Source: Nostoc punctiforme PCC 73102 | GTDB taxonomy: Bacteria; Cyanobacteriota; Cyanobacteriia; Cyanobacteriales; Nostocaceae | Assembly: GCF_000020025.1 (NCBI RefSeq) | Contig: NC_010628.1 | Span: 3,840,001-3,872,000 of the forward strand | Length of the DNA stretch: 32,000 bases | Direction of reading: 5' to 3' | Shown: piece after piece, positions 1 to 32,000 of the stretch | Layout: every line of letters begins with the position of its first letter | Numbering within the stretch: the first letter of the stretch is position 1 | Program-made: the position numbers and the translations under genes | The notes under the pieces: generated by a model | Databases searched by the model: none | Told to the model about the DNA's origin: nothing | The model's input: the letters and a program-made list of their open reading frames with translations, nothing else

Positions 1-254
1 CTTATCTACACCGTACCCAGCCAAACGCCGACGCAATTGTTATCCTCAATCCCCTTGAGCTTCGCATTTTGAAAGCTAAATCACCCAAACTACCCGAGAT
101 ATTAACAGTTAGTTGGGCTGTGGGAGCGATCGCTCGTTTAGGGGGTTACTTAGAACATCGACATAAAACCCCTATTGGTATTCAGGTACTGTAGCGAGGC
201 TGGTTAAAATTACATGACCTCTGTGAGGGATGGCAGCTTGCTAGAGAGACTTAA
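1..254 (+). pseudogene. IS4-family (Tn5/IS50-like) DDE transposase, C-terminal fragment with an in-frame TAG
   Basis: The frame starting at nt 3 reads ...ILTVSWAVGAIARLGGYLEHRHKTPIGIQVL*RGWLKLHDLCEGWQLARET*. The ARLGGY...(W)RGW...L.D...GW tail is the conserved C-terminus of IS4-type transposases. The TAG at 192-194 sits where the conserved Trp (TGG) is expected. The 5' part lies outside the window. Confidence 0.7.
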
Positions 255-271
255 CGGGAAAAGTCAGATTT

Positions 272-589
272 ATGGATGAAGTCGTCTTCTTTCACCGCAA
301 CAGTACTACCCTGATTCTGGCTGACTTGATCGAGAACTTCGAGCCAAGTAAAGTAAGTCAGAATTTTGGTTGGCTAATAAAACTAGCAGGCAGTGCCGAC
401 CCAGATGGTAAAGCGCCACTTGATTTGCGACTAACATTTTGGGGACACAAGGTTCAAGCGCGTCAATGTATTGAGCAGTTGCTGCAATGGCAACCTGAAA
501 GAATTATTCTGTCGCATGGCCGTTGGTATGCGGCGAATGGTGCTGCTGAACTGCGTCGCGCTTTTCGTTGGCTGGGAGATTTTGGATGA
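272..589 (+). pseudogene. DUF4336-like (metallo-beta-lactamase-fold) protein, C-terminal ~105 aa only
   Basis: EVVFFHRNSTTLILADLIENF...ERIILSHGRWY matches my recollection of the C-terminal half of DUF4336 proteins, which are about 230-250 aa. The frame is closed by TAG at 242-244, directly beside the IS4 remnant, so the N-terminal half is missing. Confidence 0.5.
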
Positions 590-619
590 TACAAAAAAGT
601 ATTTCCAAAGATAGTAGAA

Positions 620-663
620 ACCCATTTGCAATAATTTTTCAAATGGGTATTACAGTCTTTTTT
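620..663. terminator. Hairpin between convergent genes (possible bidirectional terminator)
   Basis: ACCCATTTG (620-628) pairs perfectly with CAAATGGGT (640-648) around an 11-nt loop. A T6 run lies at 658-663. The hairpin sits between the stop at 587-589 (+) and the stop at 662-664 (-). Confidence 0.4.
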
Positions 664-1285
664 ATAATCCAGTAAAGTTGTAACCAACTCCGAGCATCAA
701 TCCTACATCCGTTTGATCCAAAAACGCCGCATTCACCCCTGCTGTTGCTGTTAAGTTAGTATTTAAAGGAACATCTACACCACCAGATAAAAGTAAGCCA
801 ACGTCTGGATCATCACTAGTTTCAATCGCTACACCTGCTCCAACGTATGGTGCGACAGCGAATGTGTCTTGAAAAGCGTCTGCTGTACGAAAATTAAAGT
901 CATAAGTGAGAGGAACCAGAACAACAGGGTCATCCTCAATCGCTACAGATGGTCGTACAGATAAGGTACGTGTCAGCCCAATTTTGCTGATTACCATAAA
1001 GCTACCTTCACCTAAAGCTGAATCACCACCTAAACCAATGTTGCCAGCAACTCCAATATAGCTAGAGCCACCACGGGTAGTTCGACCTGGATTAACATTG
1101 ACTTGCGCCACCTCAGCAGAAGTTTTAGAAGCAGGCTGTGTTGGCTGGGGAATCAAATCGGCTGCTTTTGTTGAAATTTTACTGGAAGTCGATATTTGTG
1201 CTTGAGCAGATAATCCACTTCCCAGCATTGTGATTGTAGAGGAAATAAACAACGCAGAAAATTGCTGTAACCAAATACTATTCAT
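662..1285 (-). CDS. Small outer-membrane beta-barrel protein with signal peptide
   Basis: The N-terminal signal is ...TMLGSGLSAQAQ. A low-complexity linker follows, then alternating Gly/aromatic amphipathic strands (GVAGNIGLGG, YVGAGVAIE, LMLGVGYNF) typical of OMP beta-barrel domains. Confidence 0.6.
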   Translation of the reverse strand: MNSIWLQQFSALFISSTITMLGSGLSAQAQISTSSKISTKAADLIPQPTQPASKTSAEVAQVNVNPGRTTRGGSSYIGVAGNIGLGGDSALGEGSFMVISKIGLTRTLSVRPSVAIEDDPVVLVPLTYDFNFRTADAFQDTFAVAPYVGAGVAIETSDDPDVGLLLSGGVDVPLNTNLTATAGVNAAFLDQTDVGLMLGVGYNFTGL

Positions 1286-1502
1286 TTTTCAACCTTCCAA
1301 ATAATTTTGTATGAAGAAATCAGGTTTCAAAAAGCAATCTAATTCGTAACAAAATTGCTGTTAATTTCCTAACTGATTAAAGCTGATATTAGGCAACTTC
1401 ATTAACTGCATAGATAATACTATTCCGAGCCTGAATTACACTTTTGAAATTAACTTGGAAAAGTGGAAAACTTGTGGATATAAGCAATATTGTCAAAATT
1501 GC

Positions 1503-3608
1503 TCAGAGTTTACCAGACATTTTACCTAGGCTGGCAACAACGGCAATTAACTCAGCTGCTCTAACTGGTTTAGCAACATGTAGCTGAAATCCTGCCGCTA
1601 ATGCTTCTTTATAATCTTCTACCCTGGCGTATCCCGTCAGTGCAATAGCAGGAATCCGCCCGCCTAGCTCTGGTTCAAGTTTTCTGATTTTACGCATCAG
1701 CGCGTAGCCATCCTCACCTGGCATCCCAATGTCGCTGATTAACACATCTGGATGTAATTTTTCTAGTGCCTCAAGTGCCTGTCCTGTAGAGCTAAAAGCA
1801 CTAACTTCTGCTCCACACTCTTCGAGTACTGCGGTAATCCACTGCCGCACATCTGCCTCGTCATCTACAACCAATACCCGCAAGCCACTAAGAGGATTGG
1901 GGACTGGGGATTGGGGATTGGGGGCTGGGGACTGGGAAAAGAAGTGTAAATTATTGTCTCCTGCCCCTCTGCTTCCCTGCTCCTCGGTCACTGAGCGTAG
2001 TCGAAGTGCTGCCCCTCTGCTTTCTTCTAAAATCGGCAACTTGACTGTAAATGTCGCTCCTTGCCCTATTCCTTGGCTTTGGGCATCAATTGTACCACCG
2101 TGTAGTTCTACCAGATGAAGTGCGATCGCTAACCCTAAACCTAGTCCTTTATTTGAACGAGTATGAGTACTATCTGCTTGCCAAAAGCGCTCAAATACGT
2201 GAGGTAGGAAATCTGGACTGATGCCCTTACCGGTATCAGTTACTTCAATTTGGAGATAATTAGGAATTGCGGGTTGGGAAAACTCTTCCCTACTCCCCAT
2301 TTCCTTAGACAATCGCACTTCAACTCGTCCACCGTTGGGTGTAAATTTGATGGCATTAGTAAGTAGATTTAATACTACTTGTTGCAAGCGATCTGAGTCA
2401 CCCCAAATTTTTTCTATTGAGGTATCAAGTATAGTCTCAAGTTGAATATCCTTAGCATTTGCCAGTGATTGTACAACCTCAATTGCGGCTGTAATTACTT
2501 CTACTAAATCTACCAAATCAATGGACAGTGAAAGCTCTCCTCTAACAATCCGCGAAATATCAAGTAAGTCTTCAATAAGTTGCATTTGCAAATTAGCATT
2601 GCGCTCAATTATCTCCAGCGCGAGAGTTGCTTTAGCTTCATCTAACACACCCGTTTGTAACATTCCAGCCCAACCGATAATTGCAGTCATGGGGGTACGT
2701 AATTCGTGAGAAACTATTGCTAAAAATTCGTCTTTGGAACGGTTTGCGGCTTCTGCTGCACTTTGGGCAGCTTCGCTAACGGCGCGTGCAGCTTGTTCTC
2801 GCAGTAATAGTTGCTCTTTTTCTTCTTCAGCCTGTTTACGTTCAGTAATATCTTGCATAATTTTAGAAAAGCCGCGCAGATTTCCATCGTCATCTAGTAA
2901 AGGTGTGATGAGACAATGCGCCCAGAAAAATGTACCATCTTTACGAATATGCCAGCGATTCTCCCTAGAAAAACCTTCAGCTACTGCTTTTCTTAATACT
3001 TGCTTGGGTAGTCCCTGCTTAATTGCTTCAGGTGAAAAAACTCGTTCAAAAGGTTGACCAATTATTTCTGCTTCCTGATAACCTAAAATACGTTCTGCTC
3101 CAATGTTCCAAGTGGTAACGTTACCGTTTGGATCTAGCATAAAAATTGCGTAATTAGTTACTCCTTCTACTAATAGCCGATAACGTTCTTCACTTTGACG
3201 CAGACTGTCTTGACTTTCACGTAGACGCTCATAATTTTGCAGGGCTGCTACCGCGTTCATTTGGGCTTGTGATCGCGCCTGACGCAATGCAGTGTTAAGT
3301 AAGCTAATCAACAACGCTACTAACACAAACTGAAGCAACCCCACTACACTGAACCCAGTAATAGCCAGAGAATAAAAAGGTGGTAAAAGAAAGTAGGCGC
3401 AGACTATAGCAGACAAAAAAGTCGCCAACAGTCCTGGGTTTAAACCACCATACCAGGAACTAACCATGACAGCAGCTAAAAACAGTGGGTAAATGGAATT
3501 CAGCCTGTGTAGCTGCCATAGAAGCAGTGTCAGTAGTAAAGCCAGTAAAACCGTTAAGAATGCAATGCCATAGCCTTGTAGTTGCGATCGTCGCGTCAAT
3601 CCCCACAT
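1503..3608 (-). CDS. Hybrid sensor histidine kinase (TM region, PAS, HisKA, HATPase_c, C-terminal receiver)
   Basis: 701-aa ORF. It has four N-terminal TM helices, a PAS-like segment (ERYRLLVEGVTNYAIFMLDPNG...ITERK) and the H-box FLAIVSHELRTPMTAI. The N, G1 and G2 boxes are NLLTNAIKFT, DTGKGI and GLGLGLAI. The receiver is RVLVVDDE...ISDIGMPGEDG...LTGY...K. Confidence 0.9.
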   Translation of the reverse strand: MWGLTRRSQLQGYGIAFLTVLLALLLTLLLWQLHRLNSIYPLFLAAVMVSSWYGGLNPGLLATFLSAIVCAYFLLPPFYSLAITGFSVVGLLQFVLVALLISLLNTALRQARSQAQMNAVAALQNYERLRESQDSLRQSEERYRLLVEGVTNYAIFMLDPNGNVTTWNIGAERILGYQEAEIIGQPFERVFSPEAIKQGLPKQVLRKAVAEGFSRENRWHIRKDGTFFWAHCLITPLLDDDGNLRGFSKIMQDITERKQAEEEKEQLLLREQAARAVSEAAQSAAEAANRSKDEFLAIVSHELRTPMTAIIGWAGMLQTGVLDEAKATLALEIIERNANLQMQLIEDLLDISRIVRGELSLSIDLVDLVEVITAAIEVVQSLANAKDIQLETILDTSIEKIWGDSDRLQQVVLNLLTNAIKFTPNGGRVEVRLSKEMGSREEFSQPAIPNYLQIEVTDTGKGISPDFLPHVFERFWQADSTHTRSNKGLGLGLAIALHLVELHGGTIDAQSQGIGQGATFTVKLPILEESRGAALRLRSVTEEQGSRGAGDNNLHFFSQSPAPNPQSPVPNPLSGLRVLVVDDEADVRQWITAVLEECGAEVSAFSSTGQALEALEKLHPDVLISDIGMPGEDGYALMRKIRKLEPELGGRIPAIALTGYARVEDYKEALAAGFQLHVAKPVRAAELIAVVASLGKMSGKL
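1894..1935. repeat. STRR1-type heptamer tract (6 units) inside the kinase CDS
   Basis: The + strand reads GGATTGG GGACTGG GGATTGG GGATTGG GGGCTGG GGACTGG. On the coding strand this is TCCCAGT CCCCAGC CCCCAAT CCCCAAT CCCCAGT CCCCAAT. The 42 bp equal 14 codons, translated as SQSPAPNPQSPVPN. Confidence 0.85.
1961..2022. repeat. Perfect 14-bp direct repeat pair (CTGCCCCTCTGCTT), 48-bp period, inside the kinase CDS
   Basis: CTGCCCCTCTGCTT occurs at 1961-1974 and again at 2009-2022, bracketing 34 bp. The segment is translated as the linker ...SRGAALRLRSVTEEQGSRGAG... Confidence 0.7.
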
Positions 3609-3786
3609 TTTTTATTACTTCTGGTTATGCCATAGGTTTATTAAACTTCTACCCTAGTTTTCCACTTTCAAGTTTTACCATAAAAAATTATTCTTAAGAG
3701 TATGGTAGCTCTAAACAATACTCCTCATCATAATATTGGAAAAATCAAAGCACTAAAGAATAATTTAAAACAGGAAGATAATAACA

Positions 3787-4158
3787 ATGACCTCTAAGCA
3801 AATCTTAGTTATTGATGATGAAGATGACATCCGTCAATTGATTCAGACTTGTCTAGAAATAATGGGAGGCTGGAAGGTGTTGACTGCTACTTCAGGTAAT
3901 CAGGGATTACTATTAGCTCAGTCATCTCAACCCGATGCTATCCTTTTGGATGTAATGATGCCTGATATGGATGGTTTGACAACTTTTCAAAAACTACAGG
4001 CTAATCAAATAACTAAAAATATACCTGTGATTTTGCTTACAGCTAGAGGACGCGCTAATGACCAACGTCTATTCAACGATCTAGGTGTCAGAGGCATAAT
4101 CAGTAAACCATTTAATCCTCAGAAACTAGCTGTTCAAGTAGCAGCAGCTTTGAAATAA
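3787..4158 (+). CDS. Single-domain response regulator (CheY-like receiver)
   Basis: Receiver signature: ILVIDDEDD ... ILLDVMMPDMDG ... ILLTA ... KPF. The gene is divergent from the hybrid kinase. Confidence 0.9.
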   Translation: MTSKQILVIDDEDDIRQLIQTCLEIMGGWKVLTATSGNQGLLLAQSSQPDAILLDVMMPDMDGLTTFQKLQANQITKNIPVILLTARGRANDQRLFNDLGVRGIISKPFNPQKLAVQVAAALK

Positions 4159-4486
4159 AGTACATTGAAAAATGTAAAGATTTAGATGCCAAAGATAGGA
4201 TTACTGTAGTATCTCTAATTTAGGGTAGATATGCTTCAACTAAATGCTCTATCTATAGTACTATTAACCTCTTCCCTAAGTCGTATTTTTCCCAGAGAAT
4301 ACATATTCTGCTCTAGTTTTCCACTTTTAGTCTCTAAATTTAAAACTAAGCTCAATATTAGTTCTGAATTTTGGATAGGTTATTTTATTTCCAACTAAAA
4401 AGCCTAGTTTTCCAAAACCAAAAGTAAATATATTAATTTATGAATTTTATATAAAACATGAAACATGAAATTTAACTCCAATTCTC

Positions 4487-4608
4487 TATAGCGTTTCCTA
4501 GTCTGCTGAGGTACAAATCTCTGCGTACCTCTGCGCTTTACTTTGCGTCCCTTTGCGTTTCAAAATATTATCTGTACTCTGTACCTCACGTAACTGGGAA
4601 TCGCTATA
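4487..4608. mobile_element. MITE-like 122-bp element with 29-bp terminal inverted repeats
   Basis: TATAGCGTTTCCTAGTCTGCTGAGGTACA (4487-4515) matches the reverse complement of 4580-4608 (TATAGCGATTCCCAGTTACGTGAGGTACA) at 23 of 29 positions. The interior is CTCTGCG/TTTGCG-rich. It is intergenic and has TA-rich flanks. Confidence 0.6.
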
Positions 4609-4646: not shown

Positions 4647-5216
4647 ATGTTAAATAATTTAGAATCATTTTCACATCCACCAAGCAAACAGAAATTTGCT
4701 GCTACCTTTCGTTTAGTAAGTCGAATTAGTTTTTGGGTACAGTTAGTACTTGGCGGTATTTCTGGCATTGCTGTATTGTTAGCGTGCTTTAGCCGTAACA
4801 TTACTACTCAAACAAGCAATGCAGGTATAGGATTTAGTATATTTTTGGCCATTGTTGGTATTTTATTGCTGTGCTTTCGAGTATATTGGGCTTTCCGTTA
4901 TCGAAAACTGGCTAAAACTTTACAAACACCAAATACTCAAAACCATCCCAGAAAGGAAGACGTAATTCAAAACTTACGAATTGGGTTGCTCGCGAGTTTC
5001 GTAGGGTTATTAATAGCTTTTATTGCTTCTGAAACGACAGTTGCAATTATTTTGGGCAAAGCAGTAGCACAACCTCAAGGTGTCGCAATCTATCAACCAG
5101 AAAATGTAATCCGTTCGCTAGACATTTTTGTAATGTTAGCAAATGTCAACATGATTGGCGCTCACTTTTTTGGGGGAGTTACTTCTCTTGGTTTACTTTA
5201 TTGGTTAGAAGAGTAA
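4647..5216 (+). CDS. DUF3611-family integral membrane protein
   Basis: 189 aa with 4 predicted TM helices. The N-terminal FAATFRLVSRISFWVQLVLGGISG pattern is what I recall for cyanobacterial DUF3611. Confidence 0.65.
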   Translation: MLNNLESFSHPPSKQKFAATFRLVSRISFWVQLVLGGISGIAVLLACFSRNITTQTSNAGIGFSIFLAIVGILLLCFRVYWAFRYRKLAKTLQTPNTQNHPRKEDVIQNLRIGLLASFVGLLIAFIASETTVAIILGKAVAQPQGVAIYQPENVIRSLDIFVMLANVNMIGAHFFGGVTSLGLLYWLEE

Positions 5217-5546
5217 CAGCCACAGTATTGATTTGATTTTGCTAGCTATCCCTATGGAAATACTAACCTATTCCTAAAGTAGGATTTACCAAATTTATGA
5301 GGATTCTGCCCGACTTTTCTACTATTTAGATTTAACCTCAAAATACAGTCTGTGTTCATGTCTCCTCTTGCTAGTTGAGCGGCTCAACTTTACCTAAAGT
5401 ACATAATCAAAATTTTTGATTATCGCAAAAAAAGAATAATTTAGAGACTCATTAAGAGTATTTTATATTTTTTCAATAGGTGTCAGCATTTGATTTTTCA
5501 AACAATCAATAAAAATAAGCAAAGATGAAATTACCAGGAGGTAATT

Positions 5547-6191
5547 ATGTACAACTTAAACCGTTTTTCTTTAAAAAAAGTTGGATTATTAGGAACAATT
5601 TTTGGAAGTTTGCTAATCGGTTCCTCTGCAATTACTCAATCAGCAGTAGCACAGCCGCGAATTTCCCAAATTAATCCTTGTCCTAGTATTTTCTACGAAG
5701 AACCACACCGCGATCGAGTTTTAGTTCCAGCAGGATGTCCACCGAATGCTGCAACTTTAAGATTCGGAGGACAACAAGGAACTTCTAGTTCCCAAAGTAT
5801 TATGGTTCCCGTCTATCCTATGAATGGAAGACGCTCAACTGTTATACAACCACCATTTCCAGAAAGTCGGCAAAGTCCAATTGCAACTATCACACCAACA
5901 GCAGGTACAGTTGATGTGAGATTGAAAAATAATACAAACGCTGGTATCTCTTATCAAGCAATTGGTTATACAAAGCCTCGATATCTTGCAGGTAGACAAG
6001 AATTTGTCCTACGGAATTTACCAACACCCGTCAGTATCACTTTAGTACGTCAAGACGGTGGACTACTAAAAGTTATGCCTACGTCTACCTCTGAAGGGAC
6101 ACTCGCAGTCTCGTTAGATGAAACAACAAAATTCGATAACGATCAAGGTGTATTGAGAATTCAAAAGAATGGTCAAGTCTTCTTGAATTAA
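5547..6191 (+). CDS. Secreted hypothetical protein (signal peptide, Cys pair)
   Basis: AGGAGG lies 5 nt upstream of the ATG. The signal peptide is ...SSAITQSAVAQP, followed by the CPSIFYEEP...GCPP motif. I recognise no domain. Confidence 0.65.
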   Translation: MYNLNRFSLKKVGLLGTIFGSLLIGSSAITQSAVAQPRISQINPCPSIFYEEPHRDRVLVPAGCPPNAATLRFGGQQGTSSSQSIMVPVYPMNGRRSTVIQPPFPESRQSPIATITPTAGTVDVRLKNNTNAGISYQAIGYTKPRYLAGRQEFVLRNLPTPVSITLVRQDGGLLKVMPTSTSEGTLAVSLDETTKFDNDQGVLRIQKNGQVFLN

Positions 6192-6341
6192 TACAAAAAG
6201 ATAGTCCAGATTAAACCATCCTTTTATTTGGAACCTACTAGTGGCTCACCACATTAATTTTAAGAGCGTTAAAACCCTTACTACAAGCAAATCAAAACTT
6301 TTGTGGTCGTCTACTAGGTTAACTTAAATGGAGCTTTTGAA

Positions 6342-7145
6342 ATGATCAACTTGATTCAAACAAAGTGGAGTTATAAAGGAGCTTTTGCTCTAGCAATCTC
6401 CACAGTGCTACTTGGAAGTTGTACCAACAACTTAGATCAACAGGCCGGAGTACCAGAAACCAACGTTACTACAGAAGAAGTCGCAGATAATACAAACGAA
6501 CTAATTGGCAAAACTGTAACAATTAGAAGTACACCCATTAGAAAATTAGGGCCCTCAACTTTCACAATTGCTGATAAGCAATTTTTTGGCACTCAACCAA
6601 TTTTAGTTGTAAATGCTTCGGGTAAAACTTTCACTTTACCTACTGACTCAAATACACCAATTCAAGCCACAGGCCCAGTTCGTAAGTTTGTGATTGCAGA
6701 TATTAATCGAGATTACAACTTGGGTTTAGATCCTAACTTGTACAAAGATTACGAAACCCAACCTGCAATTATTGCTCAATCAATTGCACTTGCTCCTAAA
6801 CCAGGTGAAATTACTACAAATCCTAAACTATACTACGGGAAAAACTTGGCAGTGACAGGTGAAGTGGAAAACATTAGAAATGCCAGTTCTTTCACCTTAG
6901 ATGAAGACAAATTATTTGGTGGACAGGACTTGTTAGTGATCAGTGCAGGTACTCCGAAAGGAACTGTCAACAAAGGTGAGAAAGTAGCTGTCACGGGTGT
7001 GTTACGTCCGTTTGTTCTAGCTGACTTAAAACGAGATTACGATCTCAAATGGGATTTAACTTTGCAGAAGAAACTAGAAGTAGAGTACACGAACAAACCT
7101 GTGTTAATTGCAACAGAGGTATATCCCTCTGCAATTCCGCAATAA
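6342..7145 (+). CDS. Putative lipoprotein built from two copies of a ~105-aa module (uncharacterised family)
   Basis: Signal peptide with the lipobox LLGSC. The internal repeat runs GKTVTIRS..STFTIADKQFFG..ILVV...ATGPVRKFVIADINRDYNL...PAIIA and then GKNLAVTGE..SSFTLDEDKLFGG..LLVI...VTGVLRPFVLADLKRDYDL...PVLIA. Confidence 0.75.
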   Translation: MINLIQTKWSYKGAFALAISTVLLGSCTNNLDQQAGVPETNVTTEEVADNTNELIGKTVTIRSTPIRKLGPSTFTIADKQFFGTQPILVVNASGKTFTLPTDSNTPIQATGPVRKFVIADINRDYNLGLDPNLYKDYETQPAIIAQSIALAPKPGEITTNPKLYYGKNLAVTGEVENIRNASSFTLDEDKLFGGQDLLVISAGTPKGTVNKGEKVAVTGVLRPFVLADLKRDYDLKWDLTLQKKLEVEYTNKPVLIATEVYPSAIPQ

Positions 7146-7215
7146 ACTATTCTAGAGCATTGTTTATCAGGAAAGCTTTCCATGAATAGCCTCAAGACAA
7201 ATAAGAGCAAGGGCA

Positions 7216-8010
7216 ATGAGTGACAATTCTCAAAGGGGAGATTTCTCACAAGCACTAGGTCAAGCAGGGACATTAGTTTTCCTGGTAGCGATCGCTATGG
7301 TAGTGAGAAGTTGTAGTTTTTTTGAGGCAAAGCCAACTTTCACTAGTACATCGGAAATCGCTGAGAACACTGACGAATATATCGGTAACTCTGTAACGAT
7401 TAAAAGCAGAGCAATTCAAAAAGTTGGTTTGAGTTCTTTCACGGTTAGTGATGCACGGTTCTTTCGCGGTGAACCTATTGTAGTTGTCAATGCTTCAGGT
7501 GTGCCTTTCGAGCTACCGCTTGACCAGAATGTAAAAGTTCAAGCTACTGGTCAAGTTCGTAATTTAGTAATTCCCAAAATTGAGCGAGATTTTAATCTCA
7601 ATATCGAGGAGGAATATTACAAAAATTACATAAATAAACCTGCAATAATTGCTCGATATATTGTAGTAGCGCCGCAACCTGGCCAAATAACGCAACGTCC
7701 CAAACAATACTATGGTCGTAGAGTTACAGTTACAGGAAAAGTGGACAATATTCGCAGTCCGGTTTTATTAACCCTAGATGAAAACCAATGGTTTGGTGGG
7801 CAAGATTTACTTGTTTTACTAAAAGCACCGCCCAAAATAGCAATAAATCAGGGTCAGACAATATCGGTAAGTGGTGAGGTTCGTCCTTTTGTTGCTGCTG
7901 AAATTGAACAAGATTATGATTTAACTTGGGATCTAAATGTAAAAAAAGAGTTAGAGACTGAGTACAGAAATAGACCTATTTTAATTGCTGGAACTGTATA
8001 CCCTTCTTAA
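7216..8010 (+). CDS. Paralogue of 6342-7145 (same two-module architecture, N-terminal TM/signal anchor)
   Basis: It is collinear with the upstream protein over its whole length, and by eye roughly half the positions are identical. It has the same VNASG, ATGxVR, RD(Y/F)(N/D)L, FGGQDLLV and VYPS landmarks. Confidence 0.75.
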   Translation: MSDNSQRGDFSQALGQAGTLVFLVAIAMVVRSCSFFEAKPTFTSTSEIAENTDEYIGNSVTIKSRAIQKVGLSSFTVSDARFFRGEPIVVVNASGVPFELPLDQNVKVQATGQVRNLVIPKIERDFNLNIEEEYYKNYINKPAIIARYIVVAPQPGQITQRPKQYYGRRVTVTGKVDNIRSPVLLTLDENQWFGGQDLLVLLKAPPKIAINQGQTISVSGEVRPFVAAEIEQDYDLTWDLNVKKELETEYRNRPILIAGTVYPS

Positions 8011-8126: not shown

Positions 8127-8254
8127 AGCGATGTCTGACGACAAGCCGCTAACGCTCCTTCTCTGCGAGACGCTACGCGAACGTCGCTACCGCTTCTCTA
8201 CGAGAGGCTTGTCTGCGACACGCTCCGCGAACGCCAACGCTAATGCGTCTACGC
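8127..8254. repeat. Small-dispersed-repeat-like element, long/nested copy
   Basis: It starts AGCGATGTCTGACGACAAGCC and ends GCGTCTACGC, the same ends as the 57-bp copy at 14369-14425. It contains internal 23-bp imperfect direct repeats: CTCTGCGAGACGCTACGCGAACG at 8161-8183 and GTCTGCGACACGCTCCGCGAACG at 8211-8233. Confidence 0.55.
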
Positions 8255-24484: not shown

Positions 24485-25453
24485 ATGTCTAGTCAAACCG
24501 ATTTACAAGTGCAAAGAATTAGAGCTATTGGCTTAACGGTGACAAATTGCGATCGCTCTTTGAATTTCTATACACAAGCACTTACTTTTGAACTCGTTTC
24601 TGACATCACTGTTGAAGGACAGGATTACAACGATTTAGAAGGAGTGACTGGAGCAAAAATTCGCATTGTTACTTTACGACTAGGCGATGAACTTATCGAG
24701 TTGATGGAGTACCTCAACATTAAAGGAAAACCCATACCTAGCGATTCACAAAGTAATGACCTGTGGTTTCAACACCTAGCGATTGTGGTAAGCGATATGG
24801 ATCGCGCTTATACTCATTTGCGTTCATTTCCCATTGAGCCAATTTCCGTTGCACCGCAGACAATCCCACCTAGTAATGAAGCGTCTGGTGGTGTTCGCGC
24901 CTTTAAGTTTAAAGATCCTGATGGTCATGATTTAGAGTTAATTTGGTTTCCACTTGATAAAGGAAAAGATAAATGGCATCAAAACGACCATCGCTTGTTT
25001 TTGGGAATTGATCATAGTGCGATCGCTATTTCTAACACTGAGCAGAGTTTACATTTTTACCGCGCCCTTCTGGGAATGCAAGTTGATAGCCGTAGCCTCA
25101 ACTGGCGTGCAACGCAAACTCGCTTGGATGATTTACCAGGAGCCGAAGTCAGAATTACGGCACTGCGGCCAGTTCAAGATGGTGTAGGAATTGAACTGCT
25201 AGACTATATTGTGCCTGGGAAAGGTCGTTTTATACCGAGTGATTGGAAAAGTTGCGATATTGCGAAGGTGCAAATCGAGCTTGTTGTAAATAATCTTGAG
25301 CAGCTAGTAGATAAGCTACAGCAGAATGGAGTTCAGTTTGTGTCATCGCGGATTGTACAGTTTAGCGATCGCTCATTTTCTTATAGCAAAGGTTGTTTAG
25401 TTAAAGATCCTGACGGACACGCAATTTTGCTTGTCACAAAATTATCTAAATGA
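24485..25453 (+). CDS. Two-domain VOC (glyoxalase/bleomycin-resistance/dioxygenase) family protein
   Basis: Two tandem beta-alpha-beta-beta-beta modules: FYTQALTFELV...FQHLAIVV...DPDGHDLELI and FYRALLGMQV...DPDGHAILLV. The start is the ATG at 24485 or the GTG at 24479. Confidence 0.8.
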   Translation: MSSQTDLQVQRIRAIGLTVTNCDRSLNFYTQALTFELVSDITVEGQDYNDLEGVTGAKIRIVTLRLGDELIELMEYLNIKGKPIPSDSQSNDLWFQHLAIVVSDMDRAYTHLRSFPIEPISVAPQTIPPSNEASGGVRAFKFKDPDGHDLELIWFPLDKGKDKWHQNDHRLFLGIDHSAIAISNTEQSLHFYRALLGMQVDSRSLNWRATQTRLDDLPGAEVRITALRPVQDGVGIELLDYIVPGKGRFIPSDWKSCDIAKVQIELVVNNLEQLVDKLQQNGVQFVSSRIVQFSDRSFSYSKGCLVKDPDGHAILLVTKLSK

Positions 25454-25499
25454 AAATACAAGTACTAAAATATTGCAATAAATATACGTTAAAACTGCA

Positions 25500-26138
25500 T
25501 CAATTAAGCTTTTGTTCAAGGGTAGTGAGATAGTTGTAAGCACACATCGCATAAGCACGCACAATATTCATTTCATAGTGCTTACTATTTTCTTCCGTGA
25601 CGTTGAGCAAGCTTCCTAAACTTTTGCTGACTTCCTTTGAAGTGAGAAGCCCCACTATCAATGCAGGATCAGTATTAATATTGAGATCCTTGCAAAGTTT
25701 TTCAGATGGTTTCGGGTTAGCATCGTGCTTCCAGCAGTTGGCAAATAACCGCAGAACATTTAGCTCAAAGTCGCCTGGGATCTTTTTAAGATCAACACCT
25801 CTTTTCGAGAAGATGTCGCTTAGATTTTTCATATTCAGCCTTGCTAAGTGGGAATAACCACCTGACACAGCGGCTAATAGGAGTTTCATTTCACGCTTGA
25901 CCCAATGAAAGATGTCCACTAGGAGCAACTCTGCAACTTTTATAAGTTCATAATTCCAGTCGGCTAAGTCGTCGAAGTATCTTTCTTGCTCAAAATCATC
26001 GTTAGTACTTAGAGCTTGCGAGTAATGTGAGTAGAGCGTTTCTTGTTTTTCAAGGAGAGCATTAATGATAGTTTCTATACTCTCGGTGTGAAGTCTAAGT
26101 CCAATTTCGTATGGGATAAAAGAATTACGCATTGTCAT
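25500..26138 (-). CDS. Hypothetical all-alpha protein, no family recognised
   Basis: A 212-aa ORF with helix-rich composition. It contains RLFANCWKH (R-x3-N-x3-H). It is convergent with the VOC gene. Confidence 0.55.
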   Translation of the reverse strand: MTMRNSFIPYEIGLRLHTESIETIINALLEKQETLYSHYSQALSTNDDFEQERYFDDLADWNYELIKVAELLLVDIFHWVKREMKLLLAAVSGGYSHLARLNMKNLSDIFSKRGVDLKKIPGDFELNVLRLFANCWKHDANPKPSEKLCKDLNINTDPALIVGLLTSKEVSKSLGSLLNVTEENSKHYEMNIVRAYAMCAYNYLTTLEQKLN

Positions 26139-26199
26139 ATTTAGTGAACTCAGGCAAAGTTTTGAGCTTGGCGATCATTTTTTCAAGTAACTCGGTCAT
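26125..26199 (-). other. 24-codon mini-ORF overlapping the start of the 212-aa ORF (possible antitoxin-like remnant)
   Basis: It encodes MTELLEKMIAKLKTLPEFTKYDNA*. The stop overlaps the downstream ATG region (AAATATGACAATGCGTAA). The N-terminus resembles the LLE...L..LPE starts of small addiction-module components. Confidence 0.2.
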
Positions 26200-26220
26200 C
26201 ACTACCCTACTCCCGTAGAG

Positions 26221-26240
26221 GAGATACTTTCAATTATCTC
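26221..26240. promoter_or_regulatory. Palindrome GAGATA-N8-TATCTC upstream of the mini-ORF
   Basis: Perfect 6-bp arms, located 22-41 nt upstream (minus strand) of the ATG at 26199. Confidence 0.2.
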
Positions 26241-26288
26241 TCACAAAATCGCCTGTCTGGTAGAATGGAGTGTTAACGATAAAATAAC

Positions 26289-26831
26289 TCAACGTCCAAA
26301 AATTAAAGCATCGAGCGAATAAGCACCAGGGACTAAAACCGCGATCGCAATTAGCATAACGCAATACATAAAAGCCTTTTCCCAACTTGGCGGTTCACCT
26401 TGTCCTAAAGCACCTTGATACTGTTCTGGAGGAATTAAGTATGGATCTTGAGCTACAAAAGGCTTACTTCCAGTGATGTGCAAATATATCGCAAAAATCA
26501 TTGAGCAGAGAATGGGCAATGTCGCTAAGAGGGTGAGGAATCCAATTATCAGAAAAATTCCGCCACCTAACATCGATGCACCTGATAAAAAGCAAAGAAA
26601 TACAGGCATTTTTAGAGACTCAGCCCACTGTCGAAGATGCGTTATCTTGGGATAGCCGTGTAGTATAAATAACCAGCCAAGGCTAACTCTGAGAAGTAAA
26701 AGTGCCAATCCTGGGAATCCGTCAGGATACACCGGAGAAAGCGAACTTAACAAGTGTGGACTTAACTGTGGGAAATTAAATGCAGCTAGGAAAAAAGCGA
26801 TCGCTACACCCAACCCAAATTGATAAATCAT
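26289..26831 (-). CDS. DoxX-family membrane protein
   Basis: 180 aa with 4 TM helices. LLLLRVSLGWLFILHGYPK is the DoxX signature. Its ATG overlaps the reconstructed TGA of the upstream gene (ATGA). Confidence 0.75.
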   Translation of the reverse strand: MIYQFGLGVAIAFFLAAFNFPQLSPHLLSSLSPVYPDGFPGLALLLLRVSLGWLFILHGYPKITHLRQWAESLKMPVFLCFLSGASMLGGGIFLIIGFLTLLATLPILCSMIFAIYLHITGSKPFVAQDPYLIPPEQYQGALGQGEPPSWEKAFMYCVMLIAIAVLVPGAYSLDALIFGR

Positions 26832-27732
26832 AGCTGTACACCACGGGTATTAAGGTTGATAACATATAACGAATGATCGGCTGTGATAAATAGCGATCGC
26901 CTTCTTTACCACCGAAAGTCAGGTTAGCTGATGTCTCCGGTACAAAAATTTTTCCTAAGCGAGTTCCGTCGGGGGCGTATATCTGCACGCTATCTTGAGA
27001 GCTAGTAAAAACATTGCCATATTCGTCAACCCGCAGTCCATCCGGTTGTCCTGGCTCAATGACTGCAAATACACGCCCATTCTTTACATAGCCATCGCCT
27101 ACAACCTCATAGACACGAATATGATGAGGCCCCCCAGGAATATTAAACGCAGCTGTATCTGAAACATACAGCATACTTTCGTTTGGACTGAAAGCCAACC
27201 CATTAGGGCGCACCATATCTGTTACTACAGGATAAATCTCACCTGTTGCCGGATCAAAGCGATAGACGTAACTTCCGGGTTGTTCCTGTTCGCCGCCATA
27301 ACCTTGGTTTGGCTCGGTAATCCCATAAGGCGGATCGGTGAACCAAATTGTACCGTCGCTTTTGACAACCAAATCATTTGGACTGTTCAGGCGTTTACCT
27401 TGGTCGCGATCGACTAAAACCTTCCATTCACCATCATGTTCGCGTCGGATAATAGCACGCAAACCAGATGAACACGCAACTAGACGACCCTCTAAGTCTC
27501 GGTAATTACCGCTTTGGTAATCAGATGGATCTCGTAGGACAGTCACATTGTCAGTGGCACTCCACCGCAACAGGCGGTTGCCGTGAGCATCGCTCCACAC
27601 AACGCTATCATCTTCGTGGAAGTAAACAGGCCCCTCACTATGGACTGCACCGTTGGCAAGCTTTTGAAGTGAGGCTCCTGGGCGTACAATAGCACGCAGG
27701 CGATCGTCATAAATCTCAATAGCTTCAGGCAT
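26828..27732 (-). pseudogene. SMP-30/gluconolactonase/LRE-like lactonase with a -1 frameshift 23 codons before the end
   Basis: Six-bladed propeller motifs (EGPVY, SPNDLVV, RPNGLAFSP, PDGLRVD). After FGGKEGDR the track frame gives YLSQPIIRYML... The neighbouring frame gives LFITADHSLYVINLNTRGVQL*, ending at 26828-26830. Confidence 0.8.
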
Positions 27733-28330
27733 AGAAATCTCCTGTTATTTAACTTGGCTACTGACGATAAATAGCAGGTCTAAATTAATACTAAAATTCT
27801 GTGGGTGTATATTTAACATCGTGTAACAAACTGAGTGTAGAATTTCTAGCTATTTTCATCAGTTACTAAATACAACATTGAAATTATTTATTATAAAGCA
27901 AATTCTATTTTATGGGTCTCAAATAACATTGAACCATAGATATAGATTGCACCAAAAAACTATTTTTTCAAAATAATTATTTGTATTTAAAATTAAACAT
28001 TTTTAATACAATCGAATTAATAGCTTGATCAAAGATGCCAAGCGAAATTTATTTACTATTTTTGTAAACCGATTATATGGCTAATTCACACAATAGAAAT
28101 AAAAAATGAAATCAAAATGAAATACTAACCTATATTTAGGCATAAATAAATATTAATCCATTAGAGAGAAGCAATATTGTAATTAAAGCTTTAGTCTAAG
28201 CATAAGAATATGTCTTTAGAGCTATTTAAATTTTGATAAAACTTATAAATTAACTTAAAATATTGCCAAATTAATTTGTGAAATTCAAGAAATTAAACCG
28301 TAATTAATATGAAATTACCAATTATCAATT

Positions 28331-28582
28331 ATGACTAGCATCACAGAACATTACGACATCATTATTATCGGTACAGGAGCAGGTGGAGGTACATTAGCCC
28401 ACCGCCTTGCACCCATAGGTAAAAAAATTCTAGTAGCCGTTTCTACATCCTTAAGCTTTGCTTTAAAAGCTGGCAATGAAAACAACTTAGTTGTGTTTGG
28501 TCTAGCTGTGGGCATCACTGCCCTGTTGGTTGGACTAGAACGCTTTGCTCTGTGGCTTCTGGTACACCTGAGCAAGAACTAG
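28331..28582 (+). pseudogene. Remnant of a GMC/FAD-dependent oxidoreductase (first ~34 codons only) fused to unrelated sequence
   Basis: MTSITEHYDIIIIGTGAGGGTLAHRLAPIGKKIL is a Rossmann FAD-binding N-terminus (GxGxxG). The rest of the 83-aa ORF is hydrophobic and unrelated. Such enzymes are normally over 500 aa. Confidence 0.6.
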
Positions 28583-28618
28583 TTTCATGCTGATTATAGT
28601 TTCAAGGAGAAACAGATT

Positions 28619-28975
28619 ATGAACGAAGAACACTCTACTTCTAACCAAGAAAATGAAAATCAAACGCCCCCAAATACTCATCCTATTGCAACAGGATTGG
28701 GAGCAGCCGGAGGCGGAATTGCCGGAGCCGCACTAGGCCGCTCAATTGGTGGTAAGGTAGGTGCGGCGATTGGCGGGGTTGCAGGTGCGATCGCACTTGG
28801 AGTTGCAGCCAATGAACTGGCAGGATACACCGAGCAATTCATTGAAGAACTCCAGCCGACAGTAGGCTTAGGATTAGGAGCAGATCACAAACCAATTGAA
28901 CTACCCTCTCACTATTCTTGGGAAGAATTACAAGCACTATCAAAACCCCAAGGTGAAAAAATGCAAGCCACCTAA
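28619..28975 (+). CDS. Glycine-zipper small protein
   Basis: AAGGAG lies 9 nt upstream. The core is GLGAAGGGIAGAALGRSIGGKVGAAIGGVAGAIALGVAA, with polar N- and C-terminal tails. Confidence 0.65.
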   Translation: MNEEHSTSNQENENQTPPNTHPIATGLGAAGGGIAGAALGRSIGGKVGAAIGGVAGAIALGVAANELAGYTEQFIEELQPTVGLGLGADHKPIELPSHYSWEELQALSKPQGEKMQAT

Positions 28976-28987
28976 GCCAATAATTTT

Positions 28988-29015
28988 AATTACGAATTAC
29001 GAATTACGAATTAAT
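28988..29015. repeat. AATTACG heptamer array (3 perfect units plus 1 degenerate) abutting the ZIP start codon
   Basis: AATTACG AATTACG AATTACG AATTAAT, then C ATG (29017). Confidence 0.85.
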
Positions 29016-29016
29016 C

Positions 29017-29772
29017 ATGTTTCCACTTTGGTTAAAAGCAGGTTTTTGGGGTTTGGTGGGTGGTTCAGCGCTGCTACTGGGTTCCGCAGTAGGTTACTAC
29101 GCCAAGATTCCTCAACGGGTTATTGCTGCAATTATGGCTTTTGGTGCTGGTGTGCTAATTTCGGCACTAGCGTTTGAACTAATGGATGAAGCTTATAAGC
29201 GTGGTGGCTTTGACTCAACAGCGATCGGATTTGTAAGTGGTGCAGTTGTATATACAGCAGCAAACTGGTTTCTGTCCTATCAAGGTGCAAAGCACCGCAA
29301 ACGTTCAGGTGAACAGCAACCATCGGAAGAGGAAAATAGTGGGAGTGGGATGGCGATCGCAGTTGGTGCATTACTCGATGGTATTCCCGAATCTATTGTG
29401 ATTGGTGTGAGCATGATTGACGGTGGAGTTGTTAGTTGGGTAACTGTAGCGGCTGTTTTTCTCTCTAACGTTCCCGAAGGACTTTCTAGTGCTGCTGGGA
29501 TGAAAAAAGCAGGGCGTTCAACAGCTTACATCTTCGGTGTGTGGGGAGGAATTGCCATCATTTCTGGTATAGCAGCACTTTTAGGCTATGCTTTGTTCAG
29601 TCATTTTTCACAAGAAATCATTGCCGCCACTACTGCGATCGCCGCAGGTGCTATTTTGGCAATGATTACAGACACAATGATTCCAGAAGCTTTCGAGCAA
29701 GCCCATAATTTTGCTGGACTAATCGTCGTCTTTGGATTTCTTGCTGCTTTTGTCTTGAGTAAACTCGCTTGA
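29017..29772 (+). CDS. ZIP-family divalent metal transporter
   Basis: 251 aa and about 8 TM helices. LLDGIPESIVIG and LSNVPEGLSS are paired signature helices, separated by a cytoplasmic loop (HRKRSGEQQPSEEENSGSG). Confidence 0.75.
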   Translation: MFPLWLKAGFWGLVGGSALLLGSAVGYYAKIPQRVIAAIMAFGAGVLISALAFELMDEAYKRGGFDSTAIGFVSGAVVYTAANWFLSYQGAKHRKRSGEQQPSEEENSGSGMAIAVGALLDGIPESIVIGVSMIDGGVVSWVTVAAVFLSNVPEGLSSAAGMKKAGRSTAYIFGVWGGIAIISGIAALLGYALFSHFSQEIIAATTAIAAGAILAMITDTMIPEAFEQAHNFAGLIVVFGFLAAFVLSKLA

Positions 29773-30881
29773 AATTCCAACTTCAACCGTCTCTTGTAAA
29801 TTGTCTGTACAATCGCGCAATTAAGCTATTAAAAAATCAATCACAGAGGCGGCGAATCCAGTTAATTACTATATACGCTTATTGGATCGCTCAGGAAAAC
29901 TTTTTGCTAGTGGAGGCATGGAATTTGACAATTTACCGATTACCTCAAAATTACAGTATTGGCAAATCTTAACAGATTCTTCTGGCGCTCGATACCGCGA
30001 AATCATTTTGCCTTTGTATACTCAAAAACAAGTTTCGGGTTATCTACAAGTGGCGCGTAGTATCACTGATTTAGACCAACATCTGGCTTATTTAAGATTA
30101 GCTTTGGTGTTGGGATTACCAATTTCGATGATTTTCGTTGGTTTGTCTAGTTGGTGGTTAGCAGGAAGGGCAATGCAACCTGTATATCTTTCCTACTAAC
30201 AAATACAACAATTTACTGCTGATGCTGCCCATAAGTTTCGCACACCTTTAGCAGCAATGTACTCTACTATTGAAGCTGCTATCAAGTTACAGCAAGAACC
30301 AAAATCCAATGGTGGAATTTTAGATGTACTCAAACGCCAAAATCGGCGACTATCACAATTAGTAGGAGATTTGCTGTTATTAACGAGGATAGATCAAAAA
30401 CAACTAACAGGAGAATATCAGTCTTGCTGTTTGAATGATTTAATTAGCGACTTAATTGAGGAATTAGCATTTTTGGCTGTAGAAACTAAAGTAAATCTCT
30501 CTAAACAGGTGCAAGTCTCAGAAAAACTGTATGTGATGGGAAATGAAGAACAGCTTTATCGCTTAATTTCCAACTTAATTGCCAATGCAATTCAAGCTAC
30601 ATCTAGCGGTGGAAAAGTCACGGTTTTTTTTAGAAAAGAGTGAGCTTTACGCCATGATTAAAGTTGAAGATATAGGAATTGGTATTGCTGTTGAACATCA
30701 ACAGCGAATTTTTGATCGCTTCTACCGAGTAGATCGCGACCGCTTTCGTACCTCTGGCGGTTCGGGTTTAGGATTAGCCATCGCAATCGCGATCGCCAGA
30801 GCGCATAAAGGCAATATTCACGTTCAAAGTCAACCTGGGCTTGGTAGTACATTTACAGTTCAACTTCCTTTTTCATCGTGA
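29763..30881 (+). pseudogene. Two-component sensor histidine kinase, 5'-truncated with an in-frame stop and frameshifts
   Basis: Periplasmic/TM2 piece ...YIRLLDRSGKL...LVLGLPISMIFVGLSSWWLAGRAMQP. A TAA at 30197-30199 is followed in frame by QQFTADAAHKFRTPLAAM (H-box). The N-box is LISNLIANAIQAT. A T8 run at 30624-30631 shifts the frame before VEDIGIGI...GGSGLGLAIA. There is no TM1, no start codon and no partner regulator. Confidence 0.85.
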
Positions 30882-30992
30882 TTTCTGGAAAAAATGTTGC
30901 TATCTAGTGCATTATTTATCTTGATAACGATATTTTATGCTGAAGCTTTTGTTTAAAATCTAGAATCTAACATCATTTGATTTGGAGGAGTT

Positions 30993-31254
30993 TTGATAAA
31001 TAATATTCGCAATCGCTTTAGGGGTTTTAAGCGCAAAAGGTTGAACCATCACAACTAAAACAGTTGGTACATGAGTTATTGTCAGAGTCTAATCTCGACG
31101 CAACATATTTGATTGTGATTATTGGCTCATTTGCGTTAGCGTTCGCGCAGCGTTCCACAGGAAAGCTCCTCCGAAGGAGATCGCTACATTTGGTCTACTT
31201 GCCAATAGCACTGCTGTAATTATCGGCGCAATGATTATCGCACCTCTAATGTAG
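30993..31254 (+). pseudogene. DUF389-family membrane protein, N-terminal fragment, frameshifted and carrying a repeat insertion
   Basis: GGAGG plus a TTG start. The pieces read ...QLKQLVHELLSESNLDATYLIVIIGSF and, in another frame, IATFGLLANSTAVIIGAMIIAPLM* (the DUF389 signature GAMIIAPLM). A TAG at 31252-31254 ends it, whereas intact proteins are far longer. Confidence 0.6.
31133..31185. repeat. Small-dispersed-repeat-like element (reverse orientation) inside the DUF389 fragment
   Basis: The reverse complement AGCGATCTCCTTCGGAGGAGCTTTCCTGTGGAACGCTGCGCGAACGCTAACGC shares the AGCGAT.TC start and GCGAACG...ACGC end with the 14369-14425 copy. It has its own central hairpin, CTCC-TTCG-GAGG. Confidence 0.5.
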
Positions 31255-31431
31255 TCTTATCTAAACTAGGAGTTTTACCTAAAACAAATTCTAGTTTGTA
31301 GGCGAAAAAGCTAACAAAAATAACTAAAAATATACAGTATCCCAATAGTTCCCCATTTATTTTTTTGAGGCTCCACTTTCGGAGGATTGGAATCTATAGC
31401 GATACCTGGGTCAGTTTTCATAGTTTTGATG

Positions 31432-32000
31432 TCACGAATGAAACACTTTATCCGGTGCTGATTGAGTAAACCACTCCATAGCTCTTTCGGCGATCGCAGT
31501 AGGAACTGTATGGAATCCGTTGAAATCACGGTATTCTAGGTCATAGTCTGCTTGTTTTAACTGCTGCACAATCCGGCGACTGCACCGTTCAATCGGTAAC
31601 GCCGTATCGAACTTTCCATGAGAGATGAATACACGCGGTTTCCCGGATTGGCTAGCAGGAGCCATGAATCCGGGTGAAAAGGCAATAATGTGGTTAAACA
31701 GTTCGCCATTGGTAATGCCAACCGAAAGGGCGTAGGAAGCACCATCAGAGAAACCAGCGATCGCTACCTGGTTTGGAGCGATCGCATAATGACTGAAAGT
31801 TTGTGCTAGTGCCCGATCGATAAAGGCAATATCAGGGCCATAGCCACCCCGAATAATGTCCCAAGTTTGTTGGCGTGAGTCTACTGCCAACAGAATTGTC
31901 CCAAAGCGATTTGCCAGATGATGGAGGATTTTTAGCGCACCCTCCGCATCACCTCCGGCTCCATGCAATATCAACACCAGGGGAACGGGCTGATCTGCTT
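31432..32000 (-). CDS. Phospholipase/carboxylesterase-type alpha/beta hydrolase (5' end outside the window)
   Basis: LILHGAGGDAEG, the GFSDGASYAL nucleophile elbow, then D..LP and GFHTVP (catalytic Asp and His regions). The ORF is open to the window edge. Confidence 0.75.
   Translation of the reverse strand, partial: ADQPVPLVLILHGAGGDAEGALKILHHLANRFGTILLAVDSRQQTWDIIRGGYGPDIAFIDRALAQTFSHYAIAPNQVAIAGFSDGASYALSVGITNGELFNHIIAFSPGFMAPASQSGKPRVFISHGKFDTALPIERCSRRIVQQLKQADYDLEYRDFNGFHTVPTAIAERAMEWFTQSAPDKVFHS

Follow-up and report, generated by a model that had tools for sequence, protein, structure and literature searches.

Gene content of the window

The region analysed here, referred to as the window, is a stretch of 32,000 nt from the genome of Nostoc punctiforme PCC 73102 (contig NC_010628.1, positions 3,840,001–3,872,000), in which an unusually large share of the genes is broken. 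A gene map, prepared by translating all stop-to-stop segments and scanning them with Pfam, gives a content of about 33 genes, of which ten are lesioned, or 11 if a gene for an HPP-family membrane protein is counted. As will be argued below, the window is probably a locally decaying stretch of accessory genes and not a sample of a genome undergoing erosion as a whole. The lesioned loci fall into groups: the transposase genes of two insertion sequences (IS); two genes hit by those elements (DUF4336 and a DUF1400-alpha/beta-hydrolase); three or four genes (histidine kinase, GMC oxidoreductase, DUF389 and HPP) within a duplicated block; and three further genes in an array beside a glycoside hydrolase family 15 (GH15) gene, which specify a cation diffusion facilitator (CDF), a short-chain dehydrogenase/reductase (SDR) and an SMP-30/gluconolactonase. 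According to the Pfam-based map there is no core gene among them, all being accessory or mobile.

To re-derive the lesions, intact orthologues were taken from as many as about 40 other Nostoc loci. A scan with the GH15 protein, using one genome per species, gave 80 loci, about 50 of which belong to Nostoc and its relatives, with 85–91% protein identity and conserved synteny. Open reading frames (ORFs) of the relatives were aligned to the window by tblastn, after which each lesion was aligned at the nucleotide level. Intact comparators for the IS elements were drawn from plasmid records, and the family assignment of intact comparators was confirmed by Pfam. An earlier note, made from the window sequence alone, had counted at least ten lesioned loci among roughly 35 genes. 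All ten hold up against intact homologues, and each of the eight cellular loci carries a disabling difference relative to several intact orthologues at the same position. The earlier count was, if anything, slightly low, as HPP, a DUF1622 gene and the response-regulator partner of the kinase have also been lost.

IS elements and the genes they interrupt

The window begins within an IS4-family element, of which only the 3' end is present (nt 1–267, plus strand). The assignment is based on the homology of the transposase C-terminus and on the position of the terminus: Nostoc plasmid elements with an IS4-family annotation are 81–95% identical to this sequence, and in all of them homology stops at nt 267. 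Compared with the plasmid copies of Nostoc sp. C052 and C057, a TGG codon has become TAG at nt 192–194, upstream of the original stop (nt 252–254). In a contig from the Logan assemblies (see below) that reaches 1.1 kb upstream of the window, what remains of the 390-aa transposase body forms one continuous frame. The N-terminal DNA-binding part of this transposase is out of frame with its catalytic part (N. punctiforme, L125, nt 27–167 and 191–1360), and the same split is seen in Nostoc sp. C052 (L092, nt 670–2054); this could be either shared decay or a programmed frameshift.

Five nucleotides past the IS4 end lies a DUF4336 remnant (nt 272–589, plus strand; Pfam match), which comprises the final 105 codons, the 3' 40%, of a gene of about 250 codons. 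Most homologues of this 105-aa ORF are 101–106 aa long, which suggested an intact short protein. This reading was rejected because longer homologues align upstream of a shared internal Met and because in one relative, an environmental Nostoc-like contig, a single DUF4336 frame of about 250 codons is found (L094, nt 3557–4309), the upstream half of which also matches DUF4336 in Pfam. The gene of that relative is broken by a nonsense codon of its own, and gene callers report only the downstream 102 aa of its frame.

An ISL3-family element occupies nt 9776–12272 (minus strand). It has imperfect terminal inverted repeats, its ends GGGTCTTGGCAACTTTTGGTGAT and CGTTCTTGTCAGCTTTTGGTGAT matching each other, and is flanked by an 8-bp target duplication, ACTTAAAG, at nt 9768–9775 and 12273–12280; orthologues of the interrupted gene carry one uninterrupted copy of this site. 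Just within the termini are inverted arms of GGCAGAA/GGCAGAG-like repeats (nt 9811–9848 and 12193–12230). The transposase pseudogene (nt 10246–12125, minus strand) was delimited from Pfam fragments and by aligning it, with tblastn and as DNA, to the intact 636-aa transposase of a pCC7120gamma element, to which the window element is 88% identical. Both the Zn_ribbon_ISL3 and DDE_Tnp_ISL3 domains are present. Relative to the intact copy the gene lies in five pieces in frames -1/-2/-3/-2/-3, which requires four frame changes, near nt 11634–11653, 11345–11367, 11131–11159 and 10497–10502; the underlying alterations are three 1-nt insertions, one 14-nt insertion and a 42-nt deletion. Downstream of the transposase, an intact passenger gene (nt 9857–10207, minus strand) codes for a four-helix-bundle protein of the 23S rRNA-intervening-sequence protein family.

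The gene interrupted by this element is the DUF1400-alpha/beta-hydrolase, whose orthologues are 548 aa in length. It is cut at about codon 500 by the 2.5 kb of ISL3, such that the 5' and central part lies at nt 12281–13806 and the displaced 3' end, about 48 codons and a stop, at nt 9621–9767 on the far side of the element (both minus strand). A second lesion in this gene is a perfect 43-bp tandem duplication (nt 13062–13104 and 13105–13147), which shifts the frame by +1 and is not found in four orthologues.

Lesions beside the GH15 gene

The CDF, SDR and lactonase genes form a same-strand, conserved array beside the GH15 gene. Among the relatives, CDF and the glucose-dehydrogenase (Gdh)-type SDR adjoin GH15 in about 36 of 41, and SMP-30/DoxX follow in about ten. 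In the window each of the three genes has one lesion, and the encoded proteins retain 88–95% identity to their orthologues. Since there is a single lesion per gene at this level of identity, the lesions appear to be recent.

In the CDF gene (nt 22091–23020, minus strand) the AGT or AAT codon of orthologues is replaced by TAA at nt 22184–22186, inside a run of four changed bases, and the approximately 30 codons beyond this stop still align without gaps to the orthologues. The gene is covered by the independent contigs L108–L114. The SDR gene (nt 23074–23895, minus strand; contig L097) is of the glucose 1-dehydrogenase type, the closest solved structures to its orthologue being the Bacillus glucose 1-dehydrogenases 1GEE and 1GCO (E about 1e-68). 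A tandem duplication of TACA (nt 23136–23143) converts the terminal TTLFVDGGMTLYPGFTENG and its stop codon into an unrelated 22-residue tail, by which the final 17 residues, with the conserved C-terminal TLFVDGGMTLYPGF segment, are replaced. The SMP-30/gluconolactonase gene (nt 26776–27732, minus strand), for which the closest solved structures to the orthologue are the gluconolactonases 3E5Z and 3DR2, has lost one C from GCGATCGC(C), a HIP1 site, at nt 26892/26893, as seen in more than ten independent contigs. Its final 22 residues are replaced and its reading frame now overlaps the start of DoxX by about 55 nt. The segments lost from the window SDR and lactonase align to conserved C-terminal structure in the solved homologues, and it is probable, to judge from the sequences, that two consecutive steps from glucose to gluconate are disabled.

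HIP1 sites (GCGATCGC) appear as indel hot spots in this neighbourhood. The site at which the window lactonase lost its nucleotide (nt 26885–26901) carries, in the SMP-30 orthologues of four relatives (L015, L022, L033 and L058), in-frame insertions of 24 or 48 nt that consist of a short dispersed repeat.

A further SDR gene, of 402 aa and with a long C-terminal extension, is found between GH15 and CDF (nt 20776–21984). The local G+C content there is about 0.50, relative to about 0.40 around it, and in about 36 relatives GH15 and CDF are directly adjacent without it. It is shared only by L031 and a Halotia protein, and in L031 an intact kinase adjoins it. L031 is a 6.5-kb contig (CAZZZY010000354.1) binned as 'uncultured Acetobacteraceae', and its GH15, 402-aa SDR and kinase have 90–95% protein identity to those of N. 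punctiforme; misbinning of a Nostoc contig is probable. A 212-aa ORF (nt 25500–26138) without a Pfam match separates the dioxygenase-like gene from DoxX. It is present in independent contigs (L098) and has no match in the syntenic relatives that were aligned; in L015 the gap at this position is only about 370 nt.

A duplicated block with an already broken kinase

The right-hand part of the window begins with a remnant of a GMC oxidoreductase gene (nt 28331–28434, plus strand), which retains only the N-terminal FAD-binding codons, about 35–40 in number. Its MTSITEHYDIIIIGTGAGGGTLAHRLAPIGKKIL corresponds, with a 95% match, to the N-terminal end of a GMC oxidoreductase of 530 aa. At nt 28434|28435 this remnant is joined in frame to the 3' end of the HPP gene, of which the final 48 codons are left (nt 28435–28582, plus strand). 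The deletion amounts to about 2.37 kb and has also removed a DUF1622 gene. A gene of 118 aa and a ZIP transporter gene follow, and directly after the latter is a histidine kinase pseudogene (nt 29824–30881, plus strand). Homology of the kinase begins only at about codon 102 (nt 29824), so that, compared with orthologues of 452–464 aa, about 100 codons are gone from the 5' end; in addition, a CAA codon has become TAA at nt 30197–30199, and a T7 run has become T8 at nt 30624–30631. The response-regulator partner gene is absent. The series is completed by what is left of DUF389 (nt 30992–31252, plus strand), about 76 codons that lie entirely upstream of the Pfam domain. It has a 1-nt deletion near nt 31039 and a 44-nt insertion at nt 31135–31178, and homology ends at nt 31252.

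The central portion of this arrangement (nt 28435–30941, plus strand), consisting of the HPP 3' end, the 118-aa gene, the ZIP transporter and the broken kinase, is a duplicated block. Over its 2507 bp it aligns gap-free, at 99.4% identity, with a second locus in this genome, and the final 2157 bp are identical, whereas the flanks (the starts of GMC and DUF389) are only 90–95% identical between the copies. The second locus is the source of the contigs that contain a 128-aa kinase fragment. There the order is an intact GMC gene (523 aa), DUF1622, HPP, the 118-aa gene, ZIP, the kinase in the same three pieces and then DUF389 as a 308-aa ORF, followed by another HPP gene, a Na/H exchanger and a GAF kinase. 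Both copies are present in one genome, because the same sequencing runs (e.g. SRR8435154) yield the second locus as well as contigs identical to unique parts of the window. Thus the other copy retains GMC and HPP intact, together with most of DUF389.

Both copies have the TAA, the T8 and the junction between ZIP and kinase in common. The three kinase lesions are therefore inherited and do not represent independent events at this locus. Most simply, the duplication would be an older one, the core of which has been homogenised by recent gene conversion between the deletion at one end and a 131-bp indel at the other; conversion is here deduced from the contrast between core and flanks, and a recent partial re-duplication may explain the same pattern.

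The second copy shows alterations of its own. Ahead of DUF389 it carries 131 bp of inserted sequence, and a 23-nt insertion shifts the frame within the N-terminal codons of that gene (L115, nt 4934–5354), which is called as 308 aa from an internal start. The DUF389 of the second copy may thus also be N-terminally damaged. The 44-nt insertion in the window copy is situated at a HIP1 site, where the second copy has a nested 23-nt version (L115, about nt 5200).

Support from independent assemblies

Independent data were provided by the Logan assemblies of many public sequencing runs, all from one strain. Contigs from these are 100% identical to the window over nt 1–4516, 8224–13091, 13529–17847, 20028–22735, 22706–24091 and 25386–27914, and in this way include seven of the ten lesions. 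Among the parts covered are the IS4 TAG, the IS4/DUF4336 junction, the whole of ISL3 with its frameshifts and right junction, the CDF TAA, the TACA duplication of the SDR and the lactonase deletion. The kinase lesions are confirmed through the second copy of the block. The claim of the earlier note that the lesions are real decay and not sequencing noise is borne out by these contigs and by the presence of the kinase lesions in both block copies. For the 43-bp duplication the independent support is indirect, and the GMC|HPP junction and DUF389 remnant are without such coverage.

The indirect support for the 43-bp duplication comes from contig ends. Contigs from more than ten runs all end at nt 13529, and one ends at nt 13091, exactly 30 nt into the 43-bp repeat. 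Logan assemblies use k = 31; with the duplication in place, an assembly graph of that k-mer size would be expected to break at just this point. The independent assemblies from many runs also break at exactly nt 8224/8225, and the breaks there and at nt 13529 suggest that sequence repeated elsewhere in the genome starts at these points, which in the case of nt 13529 is perhaps a DUF1400 paralogue.

Pseudogene density in the genome and in relatives

The 9.06-Mb genome of N. punctiforme PCC 73102 has 366 IS hits and 371 annotated pseudogenes, or 41 per Mb (PMC4369082), the latter corresponding to about 5% of 6690 coding sequences by literature figures. In 'Nostoc azollae' there are 1670 pseudogenes, or 304 per Mb, and pseudogenes are enriched near IS elements, significantly so in N. 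punctiforme (PMC4369082). Elsewhere PCC 73102 has been tabulated as facultative, with 77% coding sequence and 0 pseudogenes (PMC2900214); the zero reflects only missing annotation. The culturable Nostoc sp. N6 has 518 pseudogenes among 6723 chromosomal genes (PMC5987646).

With about ten lesioned loci, the window reaches about 310 per Mb, or about 30% of its genes, against 1.3 expected per 32 kb from the published annotation. The Poisson probability of ten or more is about 1e-6, rising to about 0.007 should the true number be three times that annotated. Of the lesioned ORFs in the window, at least six have been deposited as ordinary proteins.

A uniform automated screen was applied to a 22-kb portion of the window around GH15 and to the 41 syntenic loci of relatives. 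Seven loci were flagged in the window, six of which are real, compared with at most 4 in the relatives (median 1, mean 1.0; n = 41). The remaining flag, on the Na/H exchanger, was rejected as natural C-terminal length variation. Some of the flags in relatives are real as well, such as the Gdh-type SDR cut at codon 100 in L047 (8604–8903 region) together with a frameshifted cupin (12495–12819 region), and a frameshifted 706-aa gene in L023 (nt 5591–7704). Throughout Nostoc, then, this neighbourhood has some tendency to decay, of which the N. punctiforme locus is the extreme case.

Intact genes and other features of the window

About 22 of the genes look intact. They include a hybrid histidine kinase, a response regulator, DUF3611, a PRC-barrel protein, three secreted-type proteins of no named family, a peptidoglycan-binding protein, an alpha/beta hydrolase, the Na/H exchanger, a Zn-alcohol dehydrogenase, a cupin, the GH15 glucoamylase/glucodextranase, the 402-aa SDR, a two-domain glyoxalase/dioxygenase, DoxX and the ZIP transporter. 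At nt 5547–8010 are three tandem genes (214, 267 and 264 aa) whose products have signal-peptide-like N-termini and belong to no Pfam family; the 267- and 264-aa proteins are paralogues with about 50% identity, and the trio is also kept in Nostoc sp. UCD121 (L060). A tRNA scan of the window found no tRNA genes, and hence no tRNA-linked island boundary, and repeat and tandem-repeat scans of the whole window found no duplications beyond those described above.

Origin of the lesions

The evidence is in our judgement best explained by a locally decaying stretch of accessory genes, without erosion of the whole genome, in which four ordinary processes overlap within 32 kb; we regard this as probable. 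By transposition, the IS4 element that abuts DUF4336 would have removed the 5' part of that gene, and ISL3, with its 8-bp target duplication, split the DUF1400-hydrolase, both transposases having since decayed. Duplication, followed by loss in a redundant copy, would account for the GMC/HPP/118-aa/ZIP/kinase/DUF389 block that is present twice. The kinase was already defective at the time of the last copying or conversion of the central 2.5 kb, since all three of its lesions are common to both copies, and in the window copy the 2.4-kb deletion, small indels and truncation would then have destroyed GMC, DUF1622, HPP and DUF389. Slippage and point mutation would have produced the 43-bp and 4-bp tandem duplications, the 1-nt loss at the HIP1 site and the clustered multi-base change to TAA, several of which would have struck the conserved neighbourhood of glucoamylase, CDF and glucose 1-dehydrogenase, and of DoxX and gluconolactonase. 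Finally, we infer that relaxed selection on dispensable or redundant functions, in a 9-Mb genome rich in paralogues, would have allowed the lesions to persist. The mechanisms are all well known, and the clustering of pseudogenes with IS elements has already been described for this genome.

Several points weigh against this interpretation. Runs from a single strain cannot distinguish natural mutations from those acquired in culture. The independent contigs give no coverage of the GMC|HPP junction or of the DUF389 remnant, and for the 43-bp duplication the independent support is indirect. The published 371 is probably an undercount, because broken ORFs have been deposited as ordinary proteins, and the local excess is then smaller than 7.6-fold. 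Lastly, while loss of function would be obvious for the remnants and the multi-lesion genes, it is a matter of deduction for CDF (about 30 residues lost), the SDR (17 replaced) and the lactonase (22 replaced), whose C-terminal changes would have to be disabling.

Errors in the sequencing or assembly of the reference genome are hardly a credible source of the lesions. It would speak for such errors that one lesion, from T7 to T8, lies in a homopolymer, that the GMC|HPP junction falls at the boundary of a nearly identical repeat, and that independent contigs reach neither this junction nor the DUF389 remnant. However, independently assembled contigs agree perfectly with the reference over seven of the ten lesions; the lesions include 43-bp and 4-bp duplications, an IS with a target duplication, and nonsense codons; and the sequence flanking the GMC junction differs by 5% from the other copy, which marks a distinct locus and not a chimera. 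It is also very unlikely that the single-lesion genes (CDF, SDR, lactonase and, with its 43-bp duplication, the hydrolase) were mutated during five decades of laboratory culture of PCC 73102. Having one lesion each and no secondary decay they would fit such an origin, as would the derivation of all independent data from the same strain lineage, but four independent hits within about 15 kb would be an extreme coincidence unless there were a local mutator effect, the CDF stop requires several adjacent base changes, and no differences are seen between the runs of several projects, which places the lesions before the laboratory stocks diverged.

The earlier note had tentatively likened the window to the eroding genomes of obligately symbiotic Nostocales, in which case the window would be typical of a genome with about 30% of its genes as pseudogenes. 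The local value does equal the 'N. azollae' average (304 per Mb and 31.2%), and two IS elements are present, so that the resemblance holds as a local number, but not beyond it. PCC 73102 is facultative and culturable, its 9.06-Mb genome is 77% coding, the annotated load is 41 per Mb in place of 304, core genes are untouched in the window, and GMC, HPP and DUF389 have a better-preserved second copy. Genome-wide erosion is thus most improbable, and the literature figures indicate what the earlier note had named as the contrary outcome, a local junkyard in a genome with an ordinary pseudogene fraction. An explanation at the level of a pathway deserves somewhat more consideration, and is nonetheless unlikely. 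It would have a module leading from glucan via glucose and gluconolactone to gluconate lost as a unit, the linked genes decaying together by selection, or by relaxed selection after the first hit. In its strong form, which we consider doubtful, PCC 73102 would recently and specifically have inactivated a conserved Nostoc route from glucan to gluconate at two consecutive steps, as selected or permitted by a sugar-fed symbiotic or heterotrophic lifestyle; the supposed route, put forward just as tentatively, would comprise the GH15 glucoamylase, glucose 1-dehydrogenase, gluconolactonase and the neighbouring GMC oxidoreductase. The conserved adjacency of GH15, CDF and the Gdh-type SDR, with SMP-30/DoxX next in some relatives, agrees with this, as do the closest solved structures, the single recent frameshifts in both enzymes and the deletion of the adjacent GMC gene. 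Set against it, GH15, DoxX, the dioxygenase-like gene and the cupin are intact, the functional link comes from family names only, the SDR of L047 is also truncated, so the gene may simply be dispensable, and the IS-related and duplication-related lesions would be left unexplained.

Local decay of accessory genes, the reading preferred here, carries a caution for comparative work. A 32-kb sample with a density like that of 'N. azollae' can come from a genome that is not eroding, and for this reason lifestyle should not be inferred from one window. Comparative counts that take N. punctiforme as an 'intact' baseline will understate its decay, because broken ORFs have been deposited as ordinary proteins and because the tabulation in PMC2900214 lists 0 pseudogenes. 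The locus also offers clean, datable examples of IS disruption, of a dead kinase spread by duplication or gene conversion, and of indels at HIP1 sites.

Comparison with known systems

The ISL3 element of plasmid pCC7120gamma of Nostoc sp. PCC 7120 (NC_003267.1, nt 13100–15438; L091) is the closest counterpart of the window element. The two share the two-gene order, 88% nucleotide identity, the Zn-ribbon and DDE_Tnp_ISL3 domains, terminal inverted repeats and an 8-bp target duplication. They differ in that the window transposase has four frameshifts and a 42-nt deletion, and since this is so the window element would be unable to move on its own.

In the kinds of damage seen, the window resembles 'Nostoc azollae' 0708 (Ran et al. 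2010, PMC2900214), where frameshifts, nonsense codons, truncations, IS insertions and fragmented transposases are likewise found, the density is similar (about 30% of genes, or about 300 per Mb) and signal-transduction genes are among those hit. In 'Nostoc azollae', however, an obligate and vertically transmitted symbiont, decay is genome-wide and reaches core genes such as dnaA and DNA repair genes (PMC2900214), whereas the decay described here seems to be limited to a single accessory neighbourhood of a facultative, culturable strain. Nostoc sp. N6 (PMC5987646) illustrates that several hundred pseudogenes are normal for a facultatively symbiotic Nostoc of 8–9 Mb, but its figure is about 8% genome-wide compared with about 30% locally in the window. 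The clustering ascribed to 'local hopping' by Vigil-Stenman et al. (2015, PMC4369082), in which pseudogenes are enriched within kilobases of IS elements and for which N. punctiforme is named, is matched here in that the two IS elements directly disrupt two genes and the other lesions are a few kb to about 20 kb away. Unlike that pattern, the lesions of the window CDF, SDR, lactonase, GMC, kinase and DUF389 genes are not caused by IS elements, and three or four of the lesioned loci are attributable to segmental duplication.

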